From the IMG/VR virus record IMGVR_UViG_3300047335_000017, positions 1 to 64,000 of that record: a stretch of DNA of 64,000 bases, one strand, 5' to 3'. The DNA is from a virus. Positions 23,169 through 36,027 of the stretch are shown piece by piece. Each line of letters begins with the position of its first letter. Positions within the stretch are counted from its first letter, which is position 1. The notes under the pieces were generated by a model, which saw nothing but the letters and a program-made list of their open reading frames with translations, was not told the origin of the DNA and did not search any database. The position numbers were made by a program, and so were the translations under genes.

Positions 23169-25409
23169 TTAACCAATTGGTCCTGGAGCGCCGCCAGCCG
23201 GAGATTGAGCAAGCGCATCATCACCATTACTTCCGGGCTGCTGTCCCTGGCCAGCCGCAGGGATCGGAGCAGCTCCATTTCCAGGTTGCGCTCCTGGAGC
23301 CGTTCCACCGCTGATAATCTCATTTCGCATTCCCCTTTCCAAGATATCCATGGCCGCGTCAACCATCTGAGCATCCGCCGCCGCCGTGTTCTTTTGACCC
23401 TGGGTGATGCCCTTGAAGGCGTCCGCCAGCGTCTTGCGGATCGTGGCCTCGGCAATGCGCTGAGCCTGATCCTGCTGCGCCTGGGTCTGCTGATCGGCCT
23501 GCTGCTGACGCCTCGAGGCCTCGTCCGGCGAGACCAAGATGTCCTCCATGTCGCGAGCGCGGACCCTGGCCTCGACCAGCTTGCGCTCGTCGACGTGCAT
23601 CATCTCTTCGGGCTTGAGGGTCTGCGCGAGGCTGTCGGCCTGCATGCCTCGAAGCTCCTTGGCCATGAGGCTCGTCGCCCCACGCGCGATCACGTCGTAG
23701 TCGCCATCGGGCGCAAGCGCCGGATTGAACGTGCGGTTGAACACGACGCACGCATGGATGACGCTTTGCGTAAACGTATCGAACGCGCGTATAATGTCCT
23801 TGAACGGAAGCGCGGCATCACCCTTGAGCATGCTCGCGCCCGCCGCCGTGCGGAACGGTTCGCTCGGTCCCTTGTCCATGTCGCCGCCCGTCGCCGGGCC
23901 GACGAATGTTTCGCTGTCGGCGAACTTCTGCCCCAGCTCGACGATCTTCAGGAGGCTATCGATATGCGCATCGATCTGAACATTCTTGACGGCAGGCCAT
24001 TGGGCATCCTGCCCCTCTCCTTCACGATACCAGACCTTGTATGCGCCGATCGCAGTGAAGTCCTGATCGAGTCGAAGAAGATCAGTGTTCAGCTCAAGCT
24101 GGGGTCCGCACACGACAGATGCATTATCCATCAGCATGCGGGTAGCGCCCGAAACCATCATCTGACTGTCGCGTATGGCTGAAGGGAGCCCAAAGCCGAT
24201 CGGGGAAGTATCGTCCTCGTCAAAGAGGAAAGTATGTATCATGTCTATATCGACATCCATCTCTTTCCAAGGATTGAGCCGGGCGCAGATGACATTCGCG
24301 TCGATCATCCAGATTTCGCTATCGAGATCATCGGAGAGCTTTTCCGGGGGAACTTGGACGCCAACGCTTTGAAGTAGATGACCATCCACGGAACCATGCC
24401 ATGCAAGTATCTCGTACTTCATGGTCTCGGATTTCATCTCGTTCACGTTGACTTTGACGCCCATCGCGCGCAGCTCCATCTCATGTGGCTGAGCGCGATA
24501 GTTACCCATCGAGTTTCTGTTTAAGTAATCATTGATGACATTTTCGAAGAAGTCTGGTTTCTTGGCGAGCTTCTTGATCTGAGAGCGCGTCATTACATGG
24601 CGAACGAAGTAACCGTCCATTCCCCTCAATGTCTTGGCCGACATATCTGGGTAGAAGTCCCACACAGAGAGAAATTCAAAGTGTGGCTTGAAGACTTCAC
24701 GCTTCTTGGGTACGGGCGCTGGCCCATCCATGTCCCAGACGACACTGGTGCTCTTGCGCGCGAACGGGCCTCGAAGCACGCCTATGCCATAGATGATGCC
24801 CGACCTGACCACGGATCGGTTTAGCGATACATAGTCGGTCGACTGGCTTCCCCCCAGCTCTTGGAGCTGATCGTCGATCAGGTCGCTCAAGGTCTGCGCG
24901 CGGCCCTGCGCGTAGTTCTTGATGGCCTGCATGAAATACTCCCTTGTCATCGGGGAGGGAGGTTGAGTGCCGGCTTCTTGATCCTTGGACTGAGCTTCCT
25001 GCAAAGCTTGCCGCACTTCGTCGGAAGTGATGTCGGGCCACGGCGCGCTCTTGATCTCCCAATTGCGCTCGTTGCCCTGAAACATCAGGTTCATGATGCG
25101 GGAAAGAACACTGATGCACTTGACGCGCGTGATCTTAGGATACGCCTTCGATCGGTTGGGCGACATCTCCTTCTCAACCTCGGGATCGTATATCCCAAGG
25201 TATTGTCGCTGGTTGGCCAGCCAACGCAGCTCGGCGATGCGCCGATCGCTCACGTACTGCATGAACAAAGTGTTGAACCGCTGACCAAGCGCTCGCAAGT
25301 CCTCGGCGCTGATCTTCTCGACAGGCGCGTCCTCGTTGTGCGGCACATCCACGCTGGGCGGATTGATGGTCGCGAGAGCCCATGCGGTGTTGTATGGAGG
25401 CGTTTCCAT
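23169..25409 (-). CDS. portal protein
   Basis: 746 aa, the first large ORF after terL, with an acidic/Gln-rich C-terminal tail. Size and position are typical of portals. Confidence 0.7.
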   Translation of the reverse strand: METPPYNTAWALATINPPSVDVPHNEDAPVEKISAEDLRALGQRFNTLFMQYVSDRRIAELRWLANQRQYLGIYDPEVEKEMSPNRSKAYPKITRVKCISVLSRIMNLMFQGNERNWEIKSAPWPDITSDEVRQALQEAQSKDQEAGTQPPSPMTREYFMQAIKNYAQGRAQTLSDLIDDQLQELGGSQSTDYVSLNRSVVRSGIIYGIGVLRGPFARKSTSVVWDMDGPAPVPKKREVFKPHFEFLSVWDFYPDMSAKTLRGMDGYFVRHVMTRSQIKKLAKKPDFFENVINDYLNRNSMGNYRAQPHEMELRAMGVKVNVNEMKSETMKYEILAWHGSVDGHLLQSVGVQVPPEKLSDDLDSEIWMIDANVICARLNPWKEMDVDIDMIHTFLFDEDDTSPIGFGLPSAIRDSQMMVSGATRMLMDNASVVCGPQLELNTDLLRLDQDFTAIGAYKVWYREGEGQDAQWPAVKNVQIDAHIDSLLKIVELGQKFADSETFVGPATGGDMDKGPSEPFRTAAGASMLKGDAALPFKDIIRAFDTFTQSVIHACVVFNRTFNPALAPDGDYDVIARGATSLMAKELRGMQADSLAQTLKPEEMMHVDERKLVEARVRARDMEDILVSPDEASRRQQQADQQTQAQQDQAQRIAEATIRKTLADAFKGITQGQKNTAAADAQMVDAAMDILERGMRNEIISGGTAPGAQPGNGAAPIPAAGQGQQPGSNGDDALAQSPAGGAPGPIG

Positions 25410-25416
25410 TACTCTC

Positions 25417-25563
25417 TATCCTTTGCCCGAGCCCTTCGGGCCGGGCGTCATCTATCCTTTGCCCGAGCCCTTCGGGCCGGGCGTCACCTAGCCTATAAAA
25501 CCGCCGGGCGAAGCCTCGGCGCAAGGGGGAGAGCCGGGCGAAGCCTCGGCGCAAGGAGAAAGT
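25417..25563. repeat. composite GC-hairpin palindromic element with both arms tandemly duplicated
   Basis: 2 x 36 bp (TATCCTTTGCCCGAGCCCTTCGGGCCGGGCGTCA..) at 25417-25488, then 2 x 30 bp (CCGGGCGAAGCCTCGGCGCAAGG.G) at 25504-25563. It fills the terL-portal intergenic gap. Confidence 0.85.
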
Positions 25564-25566
25564 CAA

Positions 25567-27120
25567 TTATCTGGCATGGTAGCTTCCTAAAGAGGGAGTG
25601 GGCATGGATGATCTCATGCGCCTCGTGGCCATCGTCCCCACATTCATGCCATACTTACGTTCCTTTTGCATATCCCTATGGAAGAAGCGCAAGAGGTATC
25701 CCCCTCCGTCGCCCACGTGCGAGTAGCGGTTCTTCTCCGGGGTGGCTCCCTTGAGGATGTCCTTCTTCACGTCGGACGCGAAGCGCCAGCCGCCCTTGAG
25801 CGCCCGGATCAACTCCGGGCAATGGATCGGATCAATCTGGAGCGCCGGCTCGCCGCCCACGAGCGTGTTGCAATAGTGATCATACGCGTTGAGTCTGAGC
25901 GGCAGCCGGTTGTTGGTCTCGATCTCCACGTCGAAATGCTTCTTGAACTCTTTCGCAACAGTGCTCTCGTCCGTGGGCGTTCGTGATCCAGACGCCGGAT
26001 CGGGAGCAATGATGATCTTGCGGATCATCGAGAACCTAGCTTTCAAGAGGGGCTTCAACCGTTCACTGATCAGACGCTCAGCGCCCATCCCAGATTGTAC
26101 GAGTTCATGAAGTATTTTCACCCGGCCGTCGAAGTCCATCTGGCCGAGGACCATGGCGCTGCCCGTGATGCCGGGATCGAGCCCAACAACCAAGGGGAAG
26201 TACGGGTTGGGAGCAAGCTCGTATGGCGAAATGTGAATGTGCGGCCTGAAGGATGTCACCACCGCTTGGCCCGACACGCTGAAGCCCCACTCGGCCTCGA
26301 CGAACTGCTTCACCCAGATGGAAGACTTGCCCTTGATCTGGTTAAGATAATAGCCCCGTTTACCAGGGAGATTGTTGATGTTCTCGGCCTCCATCGTGAG
26401 CGCGCTGGGCTGATGGAAGTAAGTCGCGATGTAGGATGTTTCGTCTTCTTCCTCGAAATCCAAGGAGGGGCCACCATTGTGGCCAATAGACACTTCACGA
26501 GGCGCGTAGCGCCCATTCTTGAACTTACGCATGAAGGGAGCGTGTAAGTAATCGAACCACCAGTTGTCCTCGGTGCTGGGGTTGCTCGATCCCCACATGC
26601 CCCAGACGGTCACAGGTGTGCCGTCCGGTTGCTTGTATCGACCACAACGCGCGCTCAGCGCATCTACAATCGCCTTGGGGATTTCCACGAACTCGTCGAT
26701 GATCGCGAAATTGATCTCAAGAGACAAAACACGGCGAACATCTTCTGGAGTGTCCAGTGGTCGGAAAAGAACTTCACACTCGATGTCGGCATATCTGATA
26801 GTAAAGATTTTGTCGGTGGCGTTCCAGTATCCGGCTTGGCCGTCCTTGAACCAGTACCCCCACGATACAAGCGTCGTATCCTTGAGCATGGGGAGCGTGT
26901 TGCGGACGATGACCGCTCGGGTTCTTCGGATGCCATCAGGACTAGGTTCCTGCAAGCCAGCCATGTAGACTAGCTTCATGAATAGACCCGTGGTCTTCCC
27001 AGACCCGACCGGGCCAACAATCCATGAGTAAAAGAGTTCACCAACTCGATAGTCTTTGATGAACTCTTTTATGGTGAGTGGGGGATAGTAATCGAGAATT
27101 TGTACTGACATATCCCTCAA
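25567..27120 (-). CDS. terL: terminase large subunit
   Basis: 517 aa with Walker A GPVGSGKT, Walker B-like NFAIIDEF and a C-terminal nuclease-sized half. It is followed by the portal gene. Confidence 0.85.
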   Translation of the reverse strand: MRDMSVQILDYYPPLTIKEFIKDYRVGELFYSWIVGPVGSGKTTGLFMKLVYMAGLQEPSPDGIRRTRAVIVRNTLPMLKDTTLVSWGYWFKDGQAGYWNATDKIFTIRYADIECEVLFRPLDTPEDVRRVLSLEINFAIIDEFVEIPKAIVDALSARCGRYKQPDGTPVTVWGMWGSSNPSTEDNWWFDYLHAPFMRKFKNGRYAPREVSIGHNGGPSLDFEEEDETSYIATYFHQPSALTMEAENINNLPGKRGYYLNQIKGKSSIWVKQFVEAEWGFSVSGQAVVTSFRPHIHISPYELAPNPYFPLVVGLDPGITGSAMVLGQMDFDGRVKILHELVQSGMGAERLISERLKPLLKARFSMIRKIIIAPDPASGSRTPTDESTVAKEFKKHFDVEIETNNRLPLRLNAYDHYCNTLVGGEPALQIDPIHCPELIRALKGGWRFASDVKKDILKGATPEKNRYSHVGDGGGYLLRFFHRDMQKERKYGMNVGTMATRRMRSSMPTPSLGSYHAR

Positions 27121-27123
27121 ACT

Positions 27124-27333
27124 TTAGATTGGGTTCCCGGCAACCAACCTGGGATCATTCGGCTCCAGGTCCACGATCTCGATAGTGCGCGTCGTCGTCG
27201 CATACAGATGGATCGGAGGTTCCTCACCAACCTTGACGATCTGCGTAACCCGAGCTTCCTCGCCTCTGTAGCGATCCACCGTCGTGATCGCCACATTATG
27301 GCCGGCCATGTGTACTGTGATCTTGGTGGTCAT
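27124..27333 (-). CDS. small hypothetical protein
   Basis: ATG at 27333 lies 7 nt after AAGGAG. The upstream part of the track ORF is translation of the repeat element. Confidence 0.45.
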   Translation of the reverse strand: MTTKITVHMAGHNVAITTVDRYRGEEARVTQIVKVGEEPPIHLYATTTRTIEIVDLEPNDPRLVAGNPI

Positions 27334-27340
27334 CAACATC

Positions 27341-27408
27341 CTCCTTGCGCCGAGGCTTCGCCCGGCGGTTTTCCAGGTGACGCCCGGCCCGAAGGGCTCG
27401 GGCCAACG
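27341..27408. repeat. GC-hairpin palindromic element, full-length copy
   Basis: CTCCTTGCGCCGAGGCTTCGCCCGGCGGTTTTCCAGGTGACGCCCGGCCCGAAGGGCTCGGGCC. It fills the gap between 27410..27994 and 27124..27333. Confidence 0.85.
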
Positions 27409-27409
27409 C

Positions 27410-27994
27410 TTAGAGTTTCGAAACCAGTTTACCCAGCTCTTCGAGAAGAGCTTGGACATGCCCCTTGTTCTCACTGATGCTTGCGGGCGTGGTATTGCCC
27501 AGAAGCGTGCGCAGGAGGGATGATCTGTGCGTCGCGCCAGCCAAGGCGACATGGGGCTCCAGGTCCGCGTCGGGGTCGATCAGCGAACCCGAAACGCCCC
27601 TGACGGTAGCCTGAGCCTGGGCCGGCTCGTTCTCGGGCGCATCGGGCGGCTTGTTCGTGTCGAAGTGCGGGGCGGCGTTGCTGGGCTCGGGAGGCGATGC
27701 GTCGCTCTTGTAGGGCGTCGTGTCGGTGACCCCCGAGGCTTCACGACGAGCGCTGGGCACAGGCACGAGGTTGGGCGTGACTTCTTCTCCCGCCGAGGCT
27801 TCGCCCGGCTCTCCCCCGCGCGAAGCGCTGGGGCCAAAAGGGAGTAATGTTTTGAGCTGACCATCTTCATTTGGGGATGGCGAGCGCACGGCGTTGTCTT
27901 GTTCGATCTGATCGGTCGTGGTGAGTTTGGGGGAAGGCTTCACCACTTTACCTTCGACTTGATCGCCAACGTTTACGTTTGTGTTTTCTAGCAT
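27410..27994 (-). CDS. hypothetical Pro/Ser-rich protein carrying an in-frame repeat-element copy
   Basis: 194-aa ORF between the terS-like gene and terL. It is low complexity and contains the element at 27786-27835. Confidence 0.45.
   Translation of the reverse strand: MLENTNVNVGDQVEGKVVKPSPKLTTTDQIEQDNAVRSPSPNEDGQLKTLLPFGPSASRGGEPGEASAGEEVTPNLVPVPSARREASGVTDTTPYKSDASPPEPSNAAPHFDTNKPPDAPENEPAQAQATVRGVSGSLIDPDADLEPHVALAGATHRSSLLRTLLGNTTPASISENKGHVQALLEELGKLVSKL
27786..27835. repeat. degenerate GC-hairpin element inside an ORF
   Basis: GCCGAGGCTTCGCCCGGC (27792-27809) plus CGCGCGAAGCGC. It is translated in frame as ..FGPSASRGGEPGEASAGEE.. Confidence 0.7.
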
Positions 27995-28000
27995 GCCACT

Positions 28001-28435
28001 TTACTCCAAATGTATATTTATCTGCAAGGCTGTTTGTTGGGAGACTGCTTGGGCCTGGGCTCTCTGATCCAGGCTTGCGTCGAGACCGGCCACGCGAATG
28101 GTGGTCTTGATCAGGTCGGCTTTCACATGCGCGGGAACGTCATCCAACGACGCATGTATCAAACCCCAGGATGTCGTCAAAAGCGCCTCTGCTTGAGCGC
28201 GAGCCTTGATCTTGAAGCTCATGCCCTCTTTGGAAAGCAGCTCCATCGCGGAGGCTACGGCGGCTCGAAAGCGCTCGTCTTGGCGCAGCGCGAGATAAGT
28301 GTTCCTGGATATGCCATGGGCTTCGCATATCTCACGAACAGGCGATTGAGCGAGGGCAAGCTCCAAGGGCAAGCCCGTGGGCCATCCAAGGGCTGCGGGA
28401 TCGGGGCCTTGATCTAACAGCGCTGGAACGGTCAT
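28001..28435 (-). CDS. terminase small subunit-like HTH protein (could instead be a late regulator)
   Basis: 144 aa, the first gene of the late operon. It has a helix-turn-helix-like segment (VREICEAHGISRNTYLALRQ) and GGAGGGG upstream of the ATG. Confidence 0.5.
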   Translation of the reverse strand: MTVPALLDQGPDPAALGWPTGLPLELALAQSPVREICEAHGISRNTYLALRQDERFRAAVASAMELLSKEGMSFKIKARAQAEALLTTSWGLIHASLDDVPAHVKADLIKTTIRVAGLDASLDQRAQAQAVSQQTALQINIHLE

Positions 28436-28473
28436 TACACGTCAACCCCTCCGGGGCCGAATTGAGCTTCGCA

Positions 28474-28515
28474 CAAAAAATCCCCATGCTCAAGGGGGGA
28501 ACTTAGAGCATGGGG
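28474..28515 (-). terminator. terminator/attenuator-like hairpin with T-tract in the leader of the late operon
   Basis: On the minus strand, CCCCATGCTC-14 nt-GAGCATGGGG is followed by A-TTTTTT, 40 nt upstream of the terS-like ATG. An alternative pairing, TCCCC/GGGGA, is possible. Confidence 0.45.
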
Positions 28516-28557
28516 TTGGGAAGTCTGGGGTTTTGATGTCCAAGGACGGACACGAGA

Positions 28558-28586
28558 AAGATACTTCAGGCTAACCTCGGTGTAAA
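28558..28586 (-). promoter_or_regulatory. candidate sigma70-type late promoter
   Basis: Minus strand reads TTTACA-17 nt-TATCTT, immediately downstream of the iteron array and upstream of the hairpin/T-tract. Confidence 0.3.
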
Positions 28587-28590
28587 GGGT

Positions 28591-28745
28591 AAAAATCTAA
28601 TTACCCGATTTTTTCTGAAAAATCTAATTACCCGATTTTTTGAAAAATCTAATTACCCGCCGTGTACGAAGCGATTTTAATTACCCGCCGTGTACGAAGC
28701 GATTTTAATTACCCGCCGTGTACGAAGCGATTTTAATTACTGAAT
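28591..28745. repeat. iteron-like direct repeat array (core TAATTACCCG)
   Basis: Core copies start at 28598, 28625, 28650, 28678, 28706 and 28734 (the last is TAATTACTG). There are three ~25-27-bp units (GAAAAATCTAATTACCCGATTTTTT) and three 28-bp units (CCGTGTACGAAGCGATTTTAATTACCCG). An inverted GGGTAAT lies near 28770. Confidence 0.85.
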
Positions 28746-28859
28746 ATTTTTGAAAAATGTTTGTGTGATGGGTAATGCACCCCACCCCATCGTTACAAAA
28801 CCCCCTTCGCACCCGGTCAATCAGAGAAAAGAATTACTCCCCGTGCGTTCGTCTGGCGC

Positions 28860-28880
28860 TGTCTGTCTGTCAGACAGACA
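28860..28880. repeat. perfect 21-bp palindrome
   Basis: TGTCTGTCTG-T-CAGACAGACA in the divergent control region. Confidence 0.8.
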
Positions 28881-28944
28881 CGGCTCGCGAGCGCTCGAGC
28901 CTTGCGCCCGCCGGATTGCGTGAGAAATCGGCGATCTTTGTCGG

Positions 28945-28959
28945 GTTACAGACTGTAAC
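28945..28959. promoter_or_regulatory. GTTAC-N5-GTAAC palindrome, site 1
   Basis: GTTACAGACTGTAAC. Arms extend to CGGGTTACA/TGTAACCCG (28942-28962). It lies 30 nt upstream of the -35 of the early promoter. Confidence 0.7.
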
Positions 28960-28988
28960 CCGCATAACTCATTGATATCTCAGACGAT

Positions 28989-29017
28989 TTGACAGAAACA
29001 AATACCTATGCTATTGT
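28989..29017 (+). promoter_or_regulatory. sigma70-type early promoter
   Basis: TTGACA-17 nt-TATTGT, about 50 nt upstream of the first plus-strand gene. Confidence 0.5.
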
Positions 29018-29067
29018 TTGGTTAGTTGATTGATTGTCAGTCAACGAACAAAGAAAGACTTACTCAC

Positions 29068-29796
29068 ATGGACAACAAGAAAGCCTCTAAGCCCGCTTCC
29101 ATTCTGGTTTCCGACGACGTGAGCGTTGCTCCGATCCAAGCGAAGCCTGAGAGCAATCCAGGCGTTGGCCACAATTCGAGAACCGTTGCGCCGAACATGG
29201 TTCGGCTCGCGATCAATGAAGATGACAACCATATCGCTATGGTGGCGTTGATCAAGGCGGAGGGCGAGTCTCGCGACGATGAGAGCTTGGCTAGTCTCTC
29301 AATGGACTATCGCGTTGGCAAGATGATGAACGCTATGGGAATGAGCGAGGCGATCGCGAGAGCGACGCTACGCAAGGGGAAGTTCATTACCCTCCCTAAC
29401 GCAGACAACGGCGAACGCATGAGCTTAAAAGAGACGCGCATTGACGGCGCGGCGCGAACTGGCTGGTCACGCTTGTTGGATCGCGCGTTCGGAAAGAAGG
29501 AACCGGCGACTAAGACAGATGAGGAGATTGCGGAAGCCAAGGCGAAGAAGATCGAAGCGGCGAAGAAATTGCTCAAGGGAATTTCGACGGAAGCCACCGC
29601 TCCCAAGGCCGCGCCGATCACAGTGGCTTCCCTCATCGTCGAACGTGCCACCACAAAGGATGATGTTGTGAACCACGTGAGCGCGCTTCTTTCCCACATA
29701 CGAGCGTACCAGAAACAAAATGCCAAGCTTTTTATTGGTGATGAGGGCGCGGCTGTTATGGCTTGGCTTCTCGAAGCGCCGAGCTTTGGGAAATAA
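29068..29796 (+). CDS. first early protein, function unknown
   Basis: ATG at 29068 (MDNKKASKPAS...) within the track ORF 29026..29796. It is followed by a palindrome and an intrinsic terminator. Confidence 0.6.
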   Translation: MDNKKASKPASILVSDDVSVAPIQAKPESNPGVGHNSRTVAPNMVRLAINEDDNHIAMVALIKAEGESRDDESLASLSMDYRVGKMMNAMGMSEAIARATLRKGKFITLPNADNGERMSLKETRIDGAARTGWSRLLDRAFGKKEPATKTDEEIAEAKAKKIEAAKKLLKGISTEATAPKAAPITVASLIVERATTKDDVVNHVSALLSHIRAYQKQNAKLFIGDEGAAVMAWLLEAPSFGK

Positions 29797-29811
29797 CTAA
29801 CAACTTCCCAG

Positions 29812-29826
29812 GTTACAATCTGTAAC
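29812..29826. promoter_or_regulatory. GTTAC-N5-GTAAC palindrome, site 2
   Basis: GTTACAATCTGTAAC with 11-bp arms CCCAGGTTACA/TGTAACCTGGG (29807-29831), 11 nt after the stop codon. Confidence 0.7.
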
Positions 29827-29849
29827 CTGGGATTTATTTTATCATACAG

Positions 29850-29877
29850 CCCACGTCCTCGCGACGTGGGTTTTTTT
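29850..29877 (+). terminator. intrinsic terminator
   Basis: CCCACGTC-CTCGC-GACGTGGG followed by TTTTTTT. Confidence 0.7.
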
Positions 29878-30455
29878 GCGTTCGCGCACTCACACGTAAT
29901 GGGCGAGCGCGACGCAACCCGGTGCGCACGCAAGAGTCGAGTGCGGCACAACCCGATTGCAAATCAAATATCATCTGACACGTTGAAACACATGGCTCGG
30001 CAATTCAGTAGTTGTTCGGAAATTGTTGGTCACACATTAACATGGTTTTGCTGTTTGACCGTCGTGGTCTCGGCTAAACCAAGGCTAAGTGTTTGTTGCC
30101 ATCGAATTTTGGTTAGGTAGGTTATTAATGTCTTGTACAAAATAGGTATTCTAACGCGAGCTTTTAACCAGAAGTTGTATTGCTGTTGCTATACACGCAC
30201 ACCAACATGAAAAAAGGTAGCGTATGAAATCGAGTTACTAGGGTTTTATGGCCTACGTAACCAAACCTCGATGCGAGCAAGCACTTACGCGAACCTATTC
30301 CCGGCATCCGAAGACCACGAACGCCGAAACTCGAGACCATTAAGATATCTTAGTGCGCTTACTCGATTGACTTTTGGTGTTCGGTGAGTTACAGCCGAGC
30401 CTCTAATCCCTCTTCAATCTTAACTTTCTGTAAACTCGAAAATGGAGTGTTTGTA

Positions 30456-31226
30456 ATGCGTCCAGGCAAAATTAGAGACCATTGGGTTGATCGTCCCTGC
30501 TATCCGCCCAACAAGCGTCGAGGCGGAAATTTACCACGCAAGCTCATGGACCCTCGCGATCCCACGATCCTATGGACTGAGGACGATCAAGCGTGGGCCG
30601 TTGGCGAGGGTCTATTCATTGCGCGCTCGTGGCAGACCGAGCGAGTGATCCTGGTTACACTGAGTAACAAGCTAGGTTTTCTAGACATCACTGATCCTGA
30701 GAAACGCCAACTCGCTATGTTGGAGCACATTCAACGTCGAGTGCTTTGGTGCGACCCAATGTACGATAAGCTTCTATGGTTTATCGAGCAACAAGATCGC
30801 GAAGGCTATTACCACGCCTGGATGCCTCACATCCGAGAGCGTGATCCAGAACTAGTTTGGTATAAACGATGGTACGCGCGCAAGCGCGCGGCTCACGGCG
30901 TTCACACGATCTATTATGGCGAGCGCATCGAACGAGAGCGTGAACGGAGGCGGAAGATATCCGAAGCCGCCAAGCGGCCAAAGCCAGGGCTGGGATGCCC
31001 AGCGAGCGCTCTAGCGCCGGCTACGGTGGCCTTCCTGCAACGCTCCCAAGCCTTGGCTGCTGGCGAGCTTCTACAGCGCCAGGAAGAGCGCTCGCGTCGA
31101 GAGGCCAAGGATCGCGAGTTGGCCGAGCGCGATGCGGTGTTCAGGCGCAAGGAAGCAAACAAGCGATACTATGAGAAGCGCAAGCAGGCGATGGCCCGCG
31201 CCCGAGCGCTAGGCCAAGCGCGCTAA
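30456..31226 (+). CDS. early protein, function unknown (basic helical C-terminus)
   Basis: ATG at 30456 lies 8 nt after GGAG. 256 aa, with an Arg/Lys/Glu-rich C-terminal third. Confidence 0.55.
   Translation: MRPGKIRDHWVDRPCYPPNKRRGGNLPRKLMDPRDPTILWTEDDQAWAVGEGLFIARSWQTERVILVTLSNKLGFLDITDPEKRQLAMLEHIQRRVLWCDPMYDKLLWFIEQQDREGYYHAWMPHIRERDPELVWYKRWYARKRAAHGVHTIYYGERIERERERRRKISEAAKRPKPGLGCPASALAPATVAFLQRSQALAAGELLQRQEERSRREAKDRELAERDAVFRRKEANKRYYEKRKQAMARARALGQAR
30654..30668. promoter_or_regulatory. GTTAC-N5-GTAAC palindrome, site 3 (intragenic, relaxed)
   Basis: GTTACACTGAGTAAC inside 30456..31226. Confidence 0.45.
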
Positions 31227-31276
31227 AAGAGCGAGACGGCGAAACTCTAATCGCATCTCTCGACCAAATCTCTCGC

Positions 31277-31305
31277 TTGACAAGAACATTATTCTGGTGT
31301 ATAAT
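31277..31305 (+). promoter_or_regulatory. consensus sigma70 promoter
   Basis: TTGACA-17 nt-TATAAT, a perfect match to both hexamers, in the gap after 30456..31226. Confidence 0.65.
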
Positions 31306-31352
31306 AATAGCTTGGCTGGATGGGTAAGTGATCCAGTCGAACTCACTCACGT

Positions 31353-31367
31353 GTTACAGGATGTAAC
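31353..31367. promoter_or_regulatory. GTTAC-N5-GTAAC palindrome, site 4
   Basis: GTTACAGGATGTAAC, about 40-55 nt downstream of the predicted start site of the consensus promoter. Confidence 0.7.
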
Positions 31368-31397
31368 CCAGATGTCCCTTCAAGATACATCTCTCTC

Positions 31398-31467
31398 CCT
31401 CTTGCGCGAGCGCTTCGCGCCGCGCGTCACCTGGAAAACCGCCGGGCGAAGCCTCGGCGCAAGAGAG
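31398..31467. repeat. GC-hairpin palindromic element, full-length copy with a variant left stem
   Basis: CCTCTTGCGCGAGCGCTTCGCGCCGCGCGTCACCTGGAAAACCGCCGGGCGAAGCCTCGGCGCAAGAGAG. Confidence 0.85.
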
Positions 31468-31499
31468 TTGTGCGAAGCGCTCGCCGGAGGCATATAGGA

Positions 31500-31754
31500 A
31501 TGTCCCGTCTTTCCCAACTCTTGCGCGAGATCGAGATGCGACAGATCGAAAACGCGCGGCGCGAAGCGCTCGCGCAAGAGAGTCGTGCTTGGCTCTCGGG
31601 CATCGTCGAAGCCGTGCCTGTTACGAGATGTAACCCGGCGCAAAGCGCTGATGACCCGCTCGCCTTGGATTACGAACATCGTCCTCTCACAACCAACTAT
31701 CTGATCTCCCAGAGAGACCAGATCGGCGTAACCCGAGCGAAGCGAGGAAAGTAA
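31500..31754 (+). CDS. small early protein, function unknown
   Basis: ATG at 31500 lies 9 nt after GGAGG. 84 aa. Confidence 0.45.
   Translation: MSRLSQLLREIEMRQIENARREALAQESRAWLSGIVEAVPVTRCNPAQSADDPLALDYEHRPLTTNYLISQRDQIGVTRAKRGK
31620..31634. promoter_or_regulatory. GTTAC-N5-GTAAC palindrome, site 5 (intragenic, relaxed)
   Basis: GTTACGAGATGTAAC inside 31500..31754. Confidence 0.45.
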
Positions 31755-31755
31755 G

Positions 31756-31845
31756 ATGGTTGAGCAACTGACCAAGGTGATCCTGACAAGCTCGCTGCTC
31801 ATGCTCGTTGGGTTCGGCGCGCTGGTTATCATCTTCGGTGGATGA
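31756..31845 (+). CDS. possible 29-aa hydrophobic micropeptide
   Basis: Own translation: MVEQLTKVILTSSLLMLVGFGALVIIFGG. GAGGAAAG lies 5 nt upstream. The ATG follows the stop of the previous gene by 1 nt. It is too short to appear in the ORF track. Confidence 0.35.
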   Translation: MVEQLTKVILTSSLLMLVGFGALVIIFGG

Positions 31846-31848
31846 TGG

Positions 31849-31863
31849 GTTACAATCTGTAAC
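31849..31863. promoter_or_regulatory. GTTAC-N5-GTAAC palindrome, site 6
   Basis: GTTACAATCTGTAAC (GGTTACA/TGTAACC), 52 nt upstream of the ATG at 31916. Confidence 0.7.
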
Positions 31864-31882
31864 CAACCAACACTCAACCCAT

Positions 31883-31913
31883 GACGCCCGGCGCGAAGCC
31901 TCGGCGCAAAGAG
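31883..31913. repeat. half copy of the GC-hairpin element
   Basis: GACGCCCGGCGCGAAGCCTCGGCGCAAAGAG, a degenerate right arm ending 2 nt before the ATG at 31916. Confidence 0.6.
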
Positions 31914-31915
31914 AT

Positions 31916-33052
31916 ATGGAGAAACAAACGATGCATTCTTGCGAACCCAACTTCCCAAGCATCCGCTCATACGCCGAAGCCAACGAGTTCCTGGCCAAAG
32001 CCAAGCCGTTCCCCGAAACCAAGGGAGAAGGCGAGACTCATCCGCGTCGGCTCGAGGCCACGCGCAAGCGCCACATGAGCATTCGCCTTCTCGCGCCGCA
32101 TGAGCTCGAGAAGGTCTACGTCGAGACTTTCGGCGAGAAGGGATACGATAAGCGCGTTCACACCGATCAATCGCGCCTCAACCTCGAGGCGAACAAGGGC
32201 CTGAGGCATATCGCGTTCAAGCTCTACTCCACCGATGTGGTCGTATGGCGCGAAGACGAGACGGTGATCTTCGATCCCCACGTGTCGAAATCGACGAACG
32301 CTTTCGTCCGCAATTGCACGCCCCATGGCTTGCTGACGCATTGGGAAGATCGGGCCTGCCTCGTGGGCTGCTTCACGGGCAAGCGCAAGCCCTACAAGTG
32401 GTCCACCGAGACCTATCCCACGTTCGATCGCTATTACCGGGTGGCCCCGAGCGCTCGCGCGGCTTTTAAGCGTGGCCCAGCAGTCCATGAGACCGCCGGG
32501 CGAAGCCTCGGCGCAAGAGGGAGACCGAAGGGCTCGGGCCAGGAGGGAGGGGGAGAGGAAGCCTACTGGTGGCCGTTGGGCGGTATCGAGCCCTGGGATA
32601 GCCTCCAGGTCGATCGGAAGGCAGCCAGGGCTGCCCTGAGAGCCCATGGCTGGCACGACTTCGAGCTTTGGGCCATCGGCTATTGCACCATGACGAAGCG
32701 CAACTACAAGGCCAAGGCCAAGGGGAGGCTAGAGACGAGCGAGATCATGGAAATCCTCGAGGATCGCGAGAAGTGGCCCATCATGGCCAGCTCGGATTGG
32801 CCCGACATGCCCGATGAATTCTATCGGGGCCATGGCTTCGGCGCGCTCCACAATGACAACCTCGTCGAGAGGATGGCCAACGATCCGCTGTACATCAACA
32901 AGCTTCATGCGCGGCGTCTCGCGCAGCGAGTGAAACTCGCGATCTACGAGAAAGAGAGATGTGTTACAATCTGTAACCGGGACTTCCTACCGTCCTATGC
33001 GGCGGTGAAGTCTCACTTCGCTTCGCATGAGAAGTATAGTTGGAGGGTTTGA
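31916..33052 (+). CDS. early protein, function unknown, with an in-frame repeat-element copy
   Basis: ATG at 31916 (MEKQTMHSCEPNF...), 378 aa. It contains the element at 32491-32540 and palindrome site 7. Confidence 0.55.
   Translation: MEKQTMHSCEPNFPSIRSYAEANEFLAKAKPFPETKGEGETHPRRLEATRKRHMSIRLLAPHELEKVYVETFGEKGYDKRVHTDQSRLNLEANKGLRHIAFKLYSTDVVVWREDETVIFDPHVSKSTNAFVRNCTPHGLLTHWEDRACLVGCFTGKRKPYKWSTETYPTFDRYYRVAPSARAAFKRGPAVHETAGRSLGARGRPKGSGQEGGGEEAYWWPLGGIEPWDSLQVDRKAARAALRAHGWHDFELWAIGYCTMTKRNYKAKAKGRLETSEIMEILEDREKWPIMASSDWPDMPDEFYRGHGFGALHNDNLVERMANDPLYINKLHARRLAQRVKLAIYEKERCVTICNRDFLPSYAAVKSHFASHEKYSWRV
32491..32540. repeat. GC-hairpin element copy inside an ORF
   Basis: GACCGCCGGGCGAAGCCTCGGCGCAAGAGGGAGACCGAAGGGCTCGGGCC, read in frame as TAGRSLGARGRPKGSG. 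Confidence 0.8.
32963..32977. promoter_or_regulatory. GTTAC-N5-GTAAC palindrome, site 7 (intragenic)
   Basis: GTTACAATCTGTAAC, encoding ..CVTICN.. near the 3' end of 31916..33052. Confidence 0.6.
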
Positions 33053-33119
33053 TGGGAATAGAACTGTTCGTGGCGCTGGTTATCCTTGGCGTCCTATGGA
33101 TTTGGTCGGAGGGTGGTTG

Positions 33120-33377
33120 ATGAAATACCCTGACTTTGTTTGGACTAAAGCCGAAAAAGACAAGGCTTTTTCAGATGGATGGAAGTTCGTATGGTTGAAT
33201 AACAAATTCCTGGCTGTTCTTAGAGTTTTGGATGAATTCCCCGCCCATGGTGACAAGAGAGCCAGTCCTGAACAAACCATATCTGATAAAGCGGCCGAAG
33301 GCGATCCGCTTTATGAAAAAGCTTGGGCGATTATCGTCAAGCACAAGATGATGAAACTTTACTGGGATGGAGACTGA
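33120..33377 (+). CDS. small early protein, function unknown
   Basis: ATG at 33120 (MKYPDFVW...) is preceded by GGAGGG. Confidence 0.5.
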   Translation: MKYPDFVWTKAEKDKAFSDGWKFVWLNNKFLAVLRVLDEFPAHGDKRASPEQTISDKAAEGDPLYEKAWAIIVKHKMMKLYWDGD

Positions 33378-33380
33378 CTC

Positions 33381-34115
33381 ATGAGATTTCCGACATTCGA
33401 CATGAAGCTCGCGCTATGGGACGAATGGCACGACTTCTTCATTCCGCATGGCTCGACCAATAACTATCAGGTCGGGCATTCCGCGCCGTTCATCCAGTTC
33501 AATAGCGGAGAGTTGATCGTCAACAATCGTGGCTTCGATCCCAACATACGCAAGAGGTATCCCGACCTGAACGTGCGCATCGTCGCGACCACGGACTACG
33601 ACTGCCCGACGCTCACTCGCGTCGGCGAGACCAAGCCCATACCCAAGTCTCATCTCAACCATCGAGGCCAACAGATACTCTTGGTTGATGAAGACCAAGG
33701 CATAGCTGTTGGCTTGTTCAAAGACAAGCGCGGCGAGCTGGATTTCAGAAGGGAGACCATGCCTCAGAGGTTCCTCGATCGCAAAGTCGCCGCCTATTAC
33801 GCCGGGGAAAACCGCGAGCCCATCGGGCATCCGATCATCCTGGAGTACGCCCCTCCGTTAACCAACGAACAGAAGGAACACATTCACGATCTCACCATGG
33901 CTTGCGAGACATGGATGCAGATGTCCACGGACCCCAATCATATCAAGCTCTGGGACAAAAAGAGTAACAACCTTCACGCGGTGCCCATATCCATGCCCGA
34001 AGCCATGAAATATACGTTCGCCAGCTTGGATGACAAAAAGCGTGAGCAGATCGCGCTTCAAAGATTGGATCGGGGAACCCAGATCGAAGTTCTGGATAAA
34101 GTCCTGGTTCGCTAA
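33381..34115 (+). CDS. early protein, function unknown
   Basis: 244-aa ORF starting 3 nt after the previous stop. Confidence 0.6.
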   Translation: MRFPTFDMKLALWDEWHDFFIPHGSTNNYQVGHSAPFIQFNSGELIVNNRGFDPNIRKRYPDLNVRIVATTDYDCPTLTRVGETKPIPKSHLNHRGQQILLVDEDQGIAVGLFKDKRGELDFRRETMPQRFLDRKVAAYYAGENREPIGHPIILEYAPPLTNEQKEHIHDLTMACETWMQMSTDPNHIKLWDKKSNNLHAVPISMPEAMKYTFASLDDKKREQIALQRLDRGTQIEVLDKVLVR

Positions 34116-34119
34116 CCAT

Positions 34120-34290
34120 ACTCCCCCTTGGCCCGAGACTTTCCTCTTGCGCCGAGGCTTCGCCCGGCGGTTTGGATTTGCCCGGCGCGAAGGGCTCGGG
34201 AGTTACATCCTGTAACACACTCCCCCTTGGCCCGAGCCCTTCGGGCCGGACGTCACCTGAAAAACGCGCGGCGCAAAGCGCTCGCGCAAA
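34120..34290. repeat. two GC-hairpin elements in opposite orientation flanking a GTTACA palindrome (nested arrangement)
   Basis: The 18-bp direct repeat ACTCCCCCTTGGCCCGAG occurs at 34120-34137 and 34219-34236. An inverted element lies at about 34141-34200 and a forward element at 34219-34290, whose right hairpin is GCGCGGCGC-AAA-GCGC[T]CGCGC. Confidence 0.85.
34202..34216. promoter_or_regulatory. GTTAC-N5-GTAAC palindrome, site 8
   Basis: GTTACATCCTGTAAC, sandwiched between the two repeat elements. Confidence 0.7.
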
Positions 34291-34312
34291 AAAAAACAAG
34301 AGAGACTAATTT

Positions 34313-35392: not shown

Positions 35393-35415
35393 GCATCACT
35401 GTTGACTTGACCAGT

Positions 35416-35457: not shown

Positions 35458-36027
35458 ATGTTAGACGAAAGCAAGGAAGCCAAGAGCAAGCGCCTCAAGG
35501 CGGAACGCGACGCGCGCTACAAAGCCAAGAAAAAAAGCTCCCAGGCTTCGATCGGCAAAGCGCTTCGCCGATCGAAGCCTTTCGACGCGCCACTTCCCCC
35601 CATCCACATGCCGCCGCCCATCCCTGGCTTCGGCAACATCACGAAGGGGCTGCCTCCCAGGACGCCCGAGGACGAAGTGACCTACTCCGACATCCCCGGC
35701 GTCACGGCCTACGACGTGTACGACGAGGACGAGCCGATCATCGTGCGCCAACCCAAGGTGGCCCCGCCCAGGCTGCCTAAAGCCCCAAAGCAGCCGGCGC
35801 GAAGCGCTCGGCCCAAGCCGGAAGGCATGACCATGGTCATGTCCCGCACCTACCAGCGCGAGGGCAAGGTGGCTGGCGGCACGGCGGTGCGCGGCAACGC
35901 GAAGCAGCTCTCGGTCATGTTCCCGAACAAGCTCTTCGACAAGCTCGCGGCGCTGGCGCGGAAACAGGGCATCTCGTGCGGCGAGCAAGTGAGACAGCTT
36001 GTCGTGAAGCTCTTGGAGGACGCCTGA
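35458..36027 (+). CDS. basic protein with a C-terminal ribbon-helix-helix-like DNA-binding domain
   Basis: 189 aa with a Lys/Arg/Pro-rich N-terminal part. The C-terminal LSVMFPNKLFDKLAALARKQGISCGEQVRQLVVKLLE fits a beta-alpha-alpha (CopG/Arc) pattern. Confidence 0.5.
   Translation: MLDESKEAKSKRLKAERDARYKAKKKSSQASIGKALRRSKPFDAPLPPIHMPPPIPGFGNITKGLPPRTPEDEVTYSDIPGVTAYDVYDEDEPIIVRQPKVAPPRLPKAPKQPARSARPKPEGMTMVMSRTYQREGKVAGGTAVRGNAKQLSVMFPNKLFDKLAALARKQGISCGEQVRQLVVKLLEDA

Follow-up and report, generated by a model that had tools for sequence, protein, structure and literature searches.

A clustered family of hairpin modules

The window (the whole 64,000-nt stretch that we analyzed) comes from one uncultured 64.5-kb phage, and the GC-rich palindromes repeated within it raise the question of whether they arrived as a mobile element, serve the phage as a signal, or were made by the phage genome itself. 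An earlier note had described eight loci carrying a ~70-bp palindromic unit. All eight are present at the positions that it gave, and an independent hairpin scan agreed with its account of the geometry (7-9 bp stem, 3-nt TTC/GAA loop, AAA once, a single bulged A/T), returning 17 hairpins of this shape in 64 kb, 15 of which fell at 25.4-35.8 kb. The ~70-bp unit itself survives in part: such head-to-head doublets exist, but the true repeating module is the half-unit of 35-40 nt, present in ~20 copies, two of which make up the larger unit. Each half-unit consists, in order, of a head (GTGAC, AAAAC or GAGA), a hairpin whose 7-9 bp G:C stem has a bulged T and is capped by a GAA loop, and finally a purine tail (CAAGRGRGAG).

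A covariance model (CM) matched 19 half-units, all within 22,855-35,823 and none elsewhere in the window, and three truncated half-units were added by eye (Table 1). At least 19 half-units lie in 13 kb around the divergent early/late junction. Beyond its eight loci, the earlier list had missed the copies at 22855-22892, 31548-31585 and 35786-35823, as well as truncated halves at 31467-31495, 32522-32550 and 34123-34141 (read by eye and partly supported by similarity or motif matches). Its description of the copies as mostly intergenic was overstated, because five of the 11 loci lie inside ORFs.

Table 1. Positions, composition and context of the hairpin modules in the window
Position	Strand	Composition	CM score (bits) or match	Context
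22855..22892	-	Solo A-type half, degenerate; one G.A stem mismatch, bulged C in place of T	37.5	Inside scaffold-like ORF, encodes PPGEAPEQAE; indel-rich, low-complexity region
25415..25564	.	Four-half array: two direct B halves (minus) and two direct A halves (plus), head-to-head	Matches at 25415-25450, 25451-25488, 25495-25532, 25533-25550	Occupies entire TerL-portal intergenic gap
27337..27413	.	Full unit: A half (minus), spacer, B half (plus); folds into two small hairpins	45.8, 41.1	Fills gap from stop of 194-aa gene to next start codon; tail AAGGAGG before ATG
27780..27844	.	Head-to-head doublet: A half and D-type half (CCCCGCGCGAAGCGCTGGGG)	36, 40.2	Inside 194-aa ORF, encodes ...SRGGEPGEASAGEE...; lineage-specific middle of a protein with conserved ends
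31394..31470	.	Full head-to-head unit: C half (minus), spacer GTCACCTGGAAAAC, A half (plus); single long hairpin fold, -42.2/-46.9 kcal/mol, z -4.1/-4.5	51, 44.9	5' UTR of 84-aa gene, downstream of perfect sigma-70-like promoter (31277-31305) and GTTACA palindrome
31467..31495	+	5'-truncated C-type half (GTGCGAAGCGCTCGCCGGAGG), read by eye		Within 49- and 61-nt similarities; GGAGG tail 9 nt upstream of ATG at 31500
31548..31585	+	C-type half, probable source copy: AAAAC-GCGCGGCGCGAAGCGCTCGCGC-AAGAGAG	46.9	Within 84-aa early gene (31500..31754), encodes ...ENARREALAQES...
31880..31917	+	Solo hybrid half; arms of different types, stem with mismatches	31.7	5' UTR of 373-aa gene
32487..32550	+	A half and 5'-truncated B half, direct order	42.5; motif match at 32527	In-frame insertion in 373-aa ORF, encodes roughly VHETAGRSLGARGRPKGSGQEGGGE
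34123..34208	.	Truncated B tail (34123-34141), then head-to-head doublet: A half (minus), 9-nt spacer, B/C hybrid half (plus)	41.3, 25	After stop of 244-aa gene; CTCCCCCTTGGCCCGAG duplicated at 34219
34220..34297	.	Full unit: B half (minus), spacer GTCACCTGAAAAAC, C half with AAA loop (plus)	42, 41.7	Inserted between GTTACA palindrome and RBS/ATG of ATPase gene
35786..35823	+	Solo E-type half (GCCGGCGCGAAGCGCTCGGC)	34.5	Inside 189-aa ORF, in variable segment of the protein

Hairpin A (GCCGAGGCTTCGCCCGGC) occurs in seven exact copies where none is expected, and the seven A cores are identical across 18 nt; hairpin B has three exact copies and two near matches, and hairpin C two exact copies and one near match. 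Head-to-head spacers range from 8 to 19 nt. The products are mixed, including solo, tandem and head-to-head copies, hybrid arms, and halves truncated exactly at the loop, and full units are found in both orientations relative to transcription. In all six solo halves, whichever side of the divergent junction they lie on, the sense strand is the GAA strand; this shared orientation is suggestive only (calculated two-sided probability ~0.03). Independent Logan contigs from run ERR9963754 match the window exactly over 13169-25444 and 25457-27373 and end inside repeats; given these exact matches, the repeat sequence is not an assembly artefact.

The spacer GTCACCTGGAAAAC occurs exactly twice, with one further variant carrying a single mismatch. 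Together with the hairpin it might be read as a solitary CRISPR-repeat mimic (an RNA anti-CRISPR) that imitates a host repeat with a ...GAAAC-type handle. The resemblance is superficial, amounting to 36 nt of hairpin and handle with GAAAAC at the end. It is set against only two exact spacers, three stem types, truncated and in-ORF copies, no CRISPR-DR family match even at E <= 10, and no array-like multiple matches in any collection scan, and we find the idea hardly credible.

Insertions relative to related phages

Related phages supplied the empty sites that the earlier note had suggested looking for. The TerL-portal gap is 157 nt in the window versus 8-19 nt in relatives. The 5' UTR of the ATPase gene is filled in the window and empty in the relative L120, where the site reads GTTACATGATGTAACAACGGAGATTGATTTATG; the same holds for the 5' UTR of the 373-aa gene (compared with L120:9940-10003), and at this junction, 31880..31917, a comparison of gene content shows the window to be without four genes present in relatives. 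The 373-aa protein has ~22 extra codons in the window, and four homologues are without ~20-24 residues exactly there, the empty-site DNA having been compared. These comparisons support the reading that the copies are insertions relative to related phages, including at least one in frame in coding sequence.

The CM was also run on 78 TerL-linked IMG/VR loci and eight syntenic loci, 914 kb in all, covering part of each relative's genome. In this related phage DNA, syntenic relatives included, the family was not found apart from an orthologous coding segment; the only CM match, L124:78-115, falls within the orthologue of the 84-aa gene. The search of other genomes that the note had also proposed (IMG/VR, 185,579 species genomes and JGI metagenomes) returned single chance matches only, without module flanks.

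The earlier suggestion of a MITE/REP-like mobile element is therefore only partly borne out: REP/REPIN-like inverted doublets and insertions relative to relatives are present, but neither movement between genomes nor a host reservoir was seen in these searches. With no target-site duplication or parent IS at the copies, and no transposase among the 39 ORFs scanned against Pfam and/or PHROGs, which cover the small ORFs in part, the family is not a classical MITE. It could instead be a non-autonomous ssDNA transposon, either REP/REPIN or IS200/IS605-derived, whose HUH (Y1) transposase would act in trans from some host or from an unrecognised phage gene and would recognise the bulged T and the loop. 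Imperfect-palindrome stems, a conserved bulge and ~70-bp inverted doublets with a short linker are REPIN/BIME anatomy (PMC3116915, PMC8266576), the missing target-site duplication is expected for the class, and the A cores do not differ from one another; should replication begin at the divergent junction, the GAA strand of the solo copies would also be the lagging-strand template. However, the variable heads include no GTAG-like conserved 5' motif, the phage proteins scanned include no Y1/HUH protein, and the species genomes, metagenomes and IMG/VR hold no copy. Ragged ends, loop-truncated halves and variable spacers speak against precise cleavage, and relatives carry a homologous native coding segment. 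We regard such a transposon as possible but doubtful.

An early gene as the probable source

Outside this genome, homologous sequence was limited to one place, the segment encoding QRREALAQ in orthologues of the 84-aa early gene. The L124 and L120 orthologues align at 31548..31585 without an indel, and that of L124 retains the core GCGGCGCGAAGCGCTCGC. Within the window, 31538-31598 (61 nt) aligns collinearly with 31424-31483 of the neighbouring unit, spacer included, and 31552-31580 is identical at 29 of 29 positions to the inverted copy at 31399-31427, ~125 nt upstream. In the window, the ARREALAQ-coding segment comes close to self-complementarity, since the Ala codon GCG and the Arg codon CGC are each other's reverse complement; in this reading, the Glu codon GAA supplies the loop, and the central base of the Leu codon CTC supplies the bulged T.

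From these alignments, we infer that the ARREALAQ-coding segment was the seed of the family. The direction from gene to repeats rests on orthology, and an element could alternatively have gene-converted a coding segment that resembled it beforehand. Several paired changes separate the commonest type, A, from type C of the proposed source, which calls for either a longer history or a different source; candidates for the latter are the A-like coding copies within the scaffold-like and 194-aa ORFs.

Structure and possible signal functions

The earlier note had read the differences among stems as compensatory change preserving structure. Covariation is formally present: 90% of cells are paired, versus 22-46% when the partner columns are slid, and double-sided changes occupy 29 cells versus 12.9 +/- 2.1 in shuffles, with 0 of 500 shuffles reaching 29, a result carried by only ~3-5 independent stem types. 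The inference to a selected structure is nevertheless weakened, because the loop, the bulged T and the GCG/CGC arms can be read off the ARREALAQ coding sequence, and because arm-to-arm templated correction of quasi-palindromes would also give paired changes without selection.

Shine-Dalgarno-like tails ahead of the ATGs at 27333/27327 and 25409 are as the note described. The modules might be cis-acting RNA elements, with a stable stem-loop just upstream of such a tail or just after a stop codon that stabilises or processes mRNA, tunes translation and persists because it is useful. At all five intergenic loci, the half adjoining the downstream gene aims an AAGGAG/AAGAG tail at the start codon, and three early-region copies follow a promoter or GTTACA motif and precede the RBS; the stems covary, and the six solo copies agree in sense orientation. 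An RNA role is harder to reconcile with relatives that express the same genes without copies, with the five loci within ORFs, and with full units that face both ways relative to transcription. The hairpins have no terminator signature, their U-tracts being inadequate, and no Rfam family matches the repeats. Several copies contain uncompensated mismatches, the sole G.T pair would be a C.A mismatch in the transcribed strand, and folding z-scores are unremarkable in two of the three full units tested. Taken together, we consider this explanation unlikely.

Single-stranded DNA could be the relevant form instead. The d(GCGAAGC) and d(CCGAAGG) mini-hairpins have a reported exceptional stability, and these cores are those of the mini-hairpins reported at the G4 origin, RSF1010 ssiA and N4 vRNAP promoters (3-nt GAA/GGA loop, stem of 5-7 bp; PMC13037366). 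The copies could then be initiation signals, either ssi-type priming sites (like those of RSF1010 ssiA and the phage G4 origin) for the phage's DUF927 primase-helicase or N4-like hairpin promoters for an RNA polymerase carried in the virion. The cluster has its centre at the divergent control region, which bears iterons, the phage has a gene for a 979-aa DUF927 protein, and the position at which N4 encodes its vRNAP is taken here by a 2752-aa virion protein. However, hairpins of this kind are missing from relatives whose replication and virion genes are orthologous, so an initiation role cannot be essential. No similarity to RNA polymerases was detectable in the 2752-aa protein, the early region is served by a perfect host-type promoter, and copies occur inside late ORFs. 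By the N4 layout, a GAA-strand template would make transcription from the two halves of a head-to-head unit converge. We hold initiation signals to be quite improbable.

A proposed route of spread

We favor, at a probability of roughly 0.5, a young, lineage-specific, REP/BIME/REPIN-like palindromic repeat family that was generated within this genome from a coding palindrome rather than imported. The seed segment would first have been duplicated, directly and inverted, ~115-150 nt upstream, and then copied at the DNA level to nearby sites in both orientations. As the preferred route, we propose replication-associated strand switching or ssDNA recombination, in which DNA that is single-stranded for a time could fold into the mini-hairpins of the GAA strand, and these could be joined at microhomologies that are purine-rich and Shine-Dalgarno-like. 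Such a route would account for products as mixed as these (solo, tandem and head-to-head copies, loop-truncated halves, hybrid arms), for the absent target duplications, for copies clustered around the source and for the arm-to-arm "compensatory" changes. After insertion, tails may have taken on the role of ribosome-binding site for at least two genes, and copies within ORFs were probably tolerated as short flexible linkers. The identical 18-nt A cores count against local copying, as they could equally fit enzyme-mediated, sequence-specific transposition or strong selection.

Comparison with known systems

Among phage repeats, the PeSLs (promoter-early stem-loops) of T4-type phages are similar in being short, repeated intergenic stem-loop cassettes upstream of early genes in a lytic phage genome, with a proposed role in recombination and the shuffling of genes. 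A promoter forms part of each PeSL, and related phages have them in common, whereas the modules here carry no promoter consensus and are unique to one genome. The mini-hairpins of the G4 origin, RSF1010 ssiA and N4 vRNAP promoters share identical core heptamers and the one-strand 3-nt GAA loop (PMC13037366), but they are one to three mapped sites per replicon with a dedicated protein, as opposed to ~20 copies in both orientations, some in ORFs and dispensable in relatives.

Like vMITEs (the MITEs reported from phage and virus genomes), the copies are small, non-coding, multi-copy insertions bounded by inverted repeats in a viral genome, a setting in which transposable elements are otherwise rare (PMC11602168). 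Unlike vMITEs, which are usually host-matched and IS-derived with target duplications, they have no host match, target duplication or parent IS. Rickettsia palindromic elements also insert in frame and add short peptides while the ORF is kept (PMC10969869); these are ~150 bp, bacterial and spread across species, whereas the phage modules measure 35-70 bp, occur in one phage only and have no sequence relationship to them.

The family also resembles the REP/BIME/REPIN repeats of bacterial chromosomes, which are mobilised by RAYT (TnpAREP). Those repeats too are imperfect palindromes of only 20-50 nt whose stem has a conserved irregularity, arranged as inverted doublets with a short linker that can fold as two hairpins or one long one, and they include several sequence types per genome without target duplications; GI REPINs measure ~71 bp (PMC8266576, PMC3116915). 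The phage family differs in having neither a GTAG-type 5' motif nor a RAYT, ~20 copies instead of hundreds, and no counterpart in the bacterial genomes searched. Its copies cluster in 13 kb, nearly half of them inside ORFs, and a putative progenitor can be identified in coding sequence.

Anatomy and arrangement of the repeat family

All eight loci that an earlier note had picked out from the sequence are present as it described them. Hairpin A occurs in seven exact copies in the window, hairpin B in three (with two near matches), and hairpin C in two (with one near match), where essentially none of each would be expected by chance. A neutral scan for hairpins with a TTC or GAA triloop, at least seven pairs, and at most one bulge returned 17 in the window, 15 of them between 25.4 and 35.8 kb. 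The proposed bulge geometry held in 15/15 of this cluster, with an A 5′ of the TTC loop, equivalent to a T 3′ of the GAA loop on the other strand. The hairpins are 18 to 22 nt long, with 7 to 9 pairs and the conserved bulged T/A.

When we aligned all copies in one orientation, the repeating module proved to be a half-unit. The unit of about 70 bp described previously does exist, but as a head-to-head pair of half-units with their tails outward. On the GAA strand, a half-unit begins with a head (GTGAC, AAAAC, or GAGA(C)), and the alignment has no conserved column upstream of the stem. The stem follows, with 4 to 5 bp in its outer part and 3 to 4 bp in its inner part, the GAA loop, the return arms, and one bulged T, and the half-unit ends in a purine-rich tail, C(A)AAGRGRGAG. 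The inverted ends thought to bound the unit (CTCYYTTGCG...CGCAAGRRGAG) are likewise present and pair in the predicted fold of the 31394 unit, but they amount to nothing more than the outward tails of an inverted pair of half-units. The spacer GTCACCTGGAAAAC is found in two exact copies and one variant with a single mismatch.

A covariance model built on the half-unit alignment found 19 half-units (accepted matches, E ≤ 0.014), all within 22,855–35,823, with the remainder at noise level (E > 0.4). Three of the loci were new, and reading the sequence added three half-units cut at or near the loop (Table), giving 19 to 22 half-units, all inside 13 kb of the phage genome. They are arranged as solo halves, direct tandems, and head-to-head doublets, the last at six loci by covariance model coordinates and with spacers of 8, 9, 14, and 19 nt. 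Copies occur on both strands, as had been stated; the statement that they are mostly intergenic is too strong, as 5/11 loci lie within ORFs. The halves at 31880 and 34174 are hybrids, which mispair because their arms derive from different stem types. Independent Logan contigs from run ERR9963754 are identical to window positions 13169–25444 and 25457–27373, and the repeats are therefore genuine sequence. These contigs end within the repeats, which break short-read assemblies of this phage.

A separate set of repeats occupies window positions 1–420, comprising a 96-nt exact direct repeat (1–96 = 313–408) and a 62-nt family whose three copies contain GCGAAGCC. These scored at noise level under the hairpin covariance model and were rejected as family members; they resemble coding repeats, and the putative ORF, which is probably on the minus strand, would extend past the left end of the window.

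Table. Window coordinates of half-units, genes, and neighboring sequence features
Feature	Position	Strand	Description
Half-unit locus	22855–22892		Added by covariance model
Half-unit locus	31548–31585		Added by covariance model
Half-unit locus	35786–35823		Added by covariance model
Half-unit, cut at or near loop	31467–31495		Sequence reading
Half-unit, cut at or near loop	32522–32550		Sequence reading
Half-unit, cut at or near loop	34123–34141		Sequence reading
Late genes	from ~28.4 kb leftward	minus	TerS-like, TerL, portal, scaffold-like, capsid, adaptor, 2752-aa virion protein
TerL	25567..27111	minus	
Portal	23169..25409	minus	
2752-aa virion-module ORF	8559–16817	minus	Precomputed Pfam PF26092 (T4_Y16D)
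Early and replication genes	from ~29 kb rightward	plus	
84-aa early gene	31500..31754		
Iteron array (candidate)	28587–28740		Divergent early/late region
GTTACA-N3-TGTAAC sites	28945–59671		14 sites
Terminator-like site	29848–29872		Canonical
Sigma-70 promoter	31277–31305		TTGACA, 17-nt spacer, TATAAT; 12/12
Paralogous genes	37341–37961, 38409–38870		HNH endonuclease PHROGs (374, 3377)
Duplicated 3′ end of DUF2201 gene	37931–38014		
PF18909 ORF	53560–54066		dATP/dGTP diphosphohydrolase, N-terminal; MazZ-like

Structure and covariation

The nine-pair structure is formed in 90% of aligned cells, compared with 22% to 46% when the partner columns are slid. Both sides have changed at five pairs of the stem, and 29 cells are changed on both sides versus 12.9 ± 2.1 in 500 shuffles (0/500 reached 29). 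Between stems B and C, exactly two base pairs are flipped, and each of these changes is compensated. The covariation that the earlier note had seen in the stems is real in that it exceeds every shuffle, but it comes from only about three to five independent stem types, and several copies carry uncompensated mismatches. The single G·T pair among the stems would become a C·A mismatch on the transcribed strand.

Folded as a single strand, the unit at 31394–31470 is predicted to form one long hairpin (RNA, −42.2/−46.9 kcal/mol; z −4.1/−4.5). The unit at 27337–27412 prefers two small hairpins (z ~ −1.3), and the fold of the unit at 34217–34297 depends on the strand. We rejected Rho-independent termination as the function of the units, as a consensus scan for a hairpin followed by a U-rich tract flagged 16 terminator-like sites in 22–37 kb, none of them a unit; a canonical site lies away from the units (Table). 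A known RNA family was also rejected, as Rfam contained nothing relevant, whether at its gathering thresholds or with the cutoff relaxed to E ≤ 10. The notion of a CRISPR-repeat mimic or RNA anti-CRISPR likewise gained no support, with no CRISPR-DR match even at E ≤ 10 and no array-like multi-match locus in any collection scan.

Distribution in other genomes

The window is nearly all of a 64.5-kb phage genome that is known from metagenomes alone; its longest contig measures 64,499 bp, and records of its proteins exist in NCBI, ENA, JGI, and Logan. We found no close relative among GenBank phages, which gave no nucleotide match to the window and a best TerL identity of 41%. Sampling of the phage group is nevertheless good: related IMG/VR loci (n = 78) encode TerL at 42% to 66% identity. 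Syntenic contigs, obtained through two proteins, have TerL identities of 80% (loci L120 and L121), 76% (L125), and 74% (L126).

We scanned IMG/VR, 185,579 species (one GTDB genome each), and the JGI metagenomes by exact pattern, using hairpin A (18, 20, and 22 nt), hairpin B (22 nt), and the C core (16 nt). The scans returned single matches only, in unrelated coding regions and without element flanks, and no species genome had multiple matches. These results led us to reject a host REP family. No parent IS or transposase whose ends match was found in the viral, genome, and metagenome collections by the same exact-pattern search, which diverged parents could escape. In 86 related loci (914 kb), both the hairpin scan and the covariance model found the family absent, with the single exception of a coding segment in L124, another related locus, and we therefore do not regard the family as common to this phage group. 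The relatives keep the GTTACA-N3-TGTAAC palindrome found in the window, and the comparison is therefore near enough to detect conserved regulatory motifs.

Filled and empty sites

The earlier note had proposed looking in other genomes for further units and for empty sites. No units were found in the collections or the relatives, and the relatives have empty sites. The distance from the TerL stop to the portal start is 157 nt in the window versus 8 to 19 nt in four relatives, and the window gap is wholly occupied by an array of four halves. The L120 sequence leading into the ATPase gene is GTTACATGATGTAAC-AACGGAGATTGATTT-ATG, and in the window a 78-nt unit separates the palindrome from the RBS, with a second unit preceding the palindrome. 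The 373-aa gene has about 60 extra nt upstream in the window, including a solo half, and its protein carries an in-frame insert of about 22 codons made of an A half and a truncated B half. Four homologs of this protein (40% to 42% identity) lack about 20 to 24 residues exactly at the insert. For the copies in the scaffold-like, 194-aa, and 189-aa ORFs, the alignments are indel-rich and compatible with either insertion or native sequence.

Comparison of the cleanest filled sites with their empty counterparts revealed no visible target-site duplication. The junctions tend toward purine-rich sequence, either RBS-like AAGGAG or, in an ORF, AGGGGAG. As these resemble the element's own tail, microhomology or target preference at the insertion sites is plausible. 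Overall, the earlier suggestion of a MITE/REP-like mobile element agrees with the insertions relative to relatives and with the inverted doublets, but no target duplication was visible, no transposase was found among the 39 ORFs scanned, exact-pattern search matched no parent IS, and the GTAG motif is missing.

The position of some copies could also reflect a role at the RNA level, as a 5′-UTR hairpin with a Shine-Dalgarno sequence or as a hairpin 3′ of a stop codon. The tail-to-ATG geometry fits such a role, but relatives manage without the copies, some copies sit inside ORFs, and full units are found in either orientation.

The region next to the 84-aa gene also differs in gene content. Window positions 31755–31930 hold no more than one ORF of 29 codons along with a solo half-unit and a GTTACA palindrome, and L120:8061–9757 and L124:260–1545 hold four small genes between the orthologs of the 84-aa and 373-aa genes. 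The difference may reflect a deletion in or close to a repeat.

A coding palindrome as the putative source

The sole covariance model match in relatives, L124:78–115 (29.9 bits), falls in the ortholog of the 84-aa early gene, at the position of the window's in-gene C-type copy. A word-indexed homolog search with the 84-aa protein returned only the self-match, and two ortholog types were found by exhaustive HMMER and local tblastn; by exhaustive HMMER, the family has only three representative types. All three align without an indel at the copy (...ENARREALAQES..., ...EAQRREALAQQK..., and ...DKQRRHEAHVLA...), and the L124 DNA keeps GCG-GCGC-GAA-GCGC-T-CGC at the segment, with the L120 version more diverged. 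Since the alignment is free of indels and the L124 core is kept, the segment is ancestral coding sequence. The codons account for the hairpin geometry: the Ala codon GCG is the reverse complement of the Arg codon CGC, Glu GAA forms the loop, and the middle base of Leu CTC is the bulged T.

The gene segment 31538–31598 is collinear with the upstream unit 31424–31483 over 61 nt, a similarity that spans the spacer (GCGACAGATCGAAAAC vs. GCGTCACCTGGAAAAC) and about 15 nt past the tail. In addition, 31552–31580 is identical at 29/29 positions to an inverted copy at 31399–31427. Read parsimoniously, these alignments suggest that the coding palindrome of the 84-aa gene seeded the family; it would first have been duplicated beside the gene and then have spread to nearby sites. 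The reverse direction, in which an element converted an already similar gene segment, is a possible alternative.

A proposed copying mechanism

The family consists of lineage-specific insertions clustered within 13 kb around this probable source and the divergent junction, and the insertion products are heterogeneous and ragged. A phage-encoded transposase was sought and rejected, as Pfam and/or PHROGs gave none, including Y1_Tnp/HUH, among 39 of the window ORFs. The boldest version of the seeding scenario, to which we assign a probability of only roughly 0.2, is that an ordinary coding palindrome (ARREALAQ in GC-rich codons) became a self-propagating DNA module without a dedicated transposase; its hairpin would form on the lagging-strand template, and the phage replication, primase, or recombination functions would paste it into purine-rich sites.

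In the copying mechanism that we favor, the module would be duplicated as DNA, through either recombination of ssDNA or strand switching associated with replication, and the process would be driven by the mini-hairpins d(GCGAAGC)/d(CCGAAGG) of the GAA strand. Such mini-hairpins are described as exceptionally stable (PMC13037366), in agreement with what had been said of the GCGAAGC core. The same route could also generate paired changes templated from arm to arm, with no need for structural selection. In six out of six solo halves, the GAA strand is the sense strand, on either side of the divergent junction; this bias is suggestive only (two-sided probability about 0.03). The cumulative GC skew has its minimum in the iteron-bearing divergent region, and if replication starts there, the GAA strand is the lagging-strand template. 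After insertion, the tails would supply RBS-like sequence to neighboring genes, and our reading of the sequence upholds the Shine-Dalgarno-like tails reported for the portal gene and the small gene starting at 27327/27333. Copies within ORFs would persist as short linkers rich in Gly, Ala, Glu, and Arg.

Two other explanations bear on the hairpin itself. A host RAYT or IS200-type HUH enzyme might act on the bulged hairpins, which would fit the identity of the A cores as well as the REPIN-like anatomy. However, the GTAG-type motif is missing, the ends are ragged, no host copy was found in the searched collections, and a likely native coding progenitor exists. The hairpins might instead be ssi-type priming signals, as in RSF1010 ssiA/ssiB and the G4 origin, or N4-type hairpin promoters, with the core heptamer CCGAAGG/GCGAAGC common to both (PMC13037366). 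Against this, the hairpins are absent from relatives with orthologous replication genes, and an essential role is thus disfavored. The 2752-aa ORF occupies the position of the virion RNA polymerase gene in N4-like phages, but its product shows no RNAP similarity: it has no match in PDB (including the N4 mini-vRNAP) or to any RNAP PHROG, vRNAPs being very divergent, and only a weak match to a PHROG of unknown function. If the transposase-free origin is correct, this would be the de novo birth of a REP-like family with its progenitor still identifiable.

Neighboring features of the phage genome

The GTTACA-N3-TGTAAC palindrome occurs at 14 sites where 0.02 are expected (e.g. 31353–31367, 31849–31863, and 34202–34216), mostly immediately 5′ of the RBS in early and middle genes, and it is conserved in L120, L121, and L124. 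One copy in the 84-aa gene encodes a conserved V-T-x-C-N. The palindrome probably serves a phage regulator as an operator or promoter element and is distinct from the hairpin family. The iteron array contains three copies of AAAAATCTAATTACCCGATTTTTT, about 26 nt apart, and a second set of three tandem 28-nt units, TAATTACCCGCCGTGTACGAAGCGATTT; it might serve as an origin, a pac site, or a binding array for a regulator. The perfect sigma-70 promoter upstream of the 84-aa gene suggests that this early region is probably transcribed by the host RNA polymerase.

The two paralogous HNH-like genes are 51% identical over 104 aa, have no Pfam match, and are absent from L120 and L121. The duplication of the DUF2201 3′ end is as expected after homing endonuclease insertion. 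Both genes are lineage-specific, and nothing links them to the repeats. The PF18909 match may point to a modified base or to manipulation of the nucleotide pool; a PurZ-like protein was not seen among the ORFs scanned.

Comparison with known repeat systems

REP, BIME, and REPIN sequences share with this family an imperfect palindrome of 20 to 50 nt with a conserved stem irregularity, and inverted doublets that can fold as one hairpin, as at 31394–31470 (the 27337 unit prefers two). REPs carry a conserved tetranucleotide, usually GTAG, directly 5′ of the palindrome (PMC8266576), which is absent here. They also have a cognate RAYT/TnpAREP (HUH-Y1) gene, typically REP-flanked, of which the 39 ORFs scanned contain none. 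REPs are many, extragenic, and chromosome-wide, whereas here there are 19 to 22 half-units in 13 kb, with 5/11 loci intragenic. MITEs have terminal inverted repeats, present here as the tails of two inverted half-units, but they differ in having flanking target-site duplications, of which there are none here, and a parent IS or transposase, which exact-pattern search did not match. Rickettsia palindromic elements (RPEs) insert in frame into ORFs, as do the approximately 22 codons in the 373-aa protein; compared by description only, they measure about 100 to 150 bp and occur in Rickettsia, and the elements here measure 35 to 70 bp. The family thus does not show defining features of REPs (GTAG, RAYT, and chromosomal abundance) and of MITEs (target duplication and parent IS).

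Transposable DNA is rare in phage genomes (PMC11602168), and how REP/REPIN-type repeats originate and are copied is still debated. One small genome here shows a recent burst of such repeats and offers three controls: a likely progenitor still in place in a conserved gene, empty sites in relatives, and no detectable transposase. With a cultured isolate of this phage or of a near relative, one could test whether stable DNA hairpins spread by replication or recombination alone, and the rate at which inserted copies become ribosome-binding sites, 5′-UTR structures, or peptide linkers. Among known systems, the family works most like REP/BIME/REPIN sequences, and its in-frame insertions resemble RPEs. 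What stands out, from computation on a single genome, is a repeat burst in a phage together with a traceable origin in a coding palindrome.
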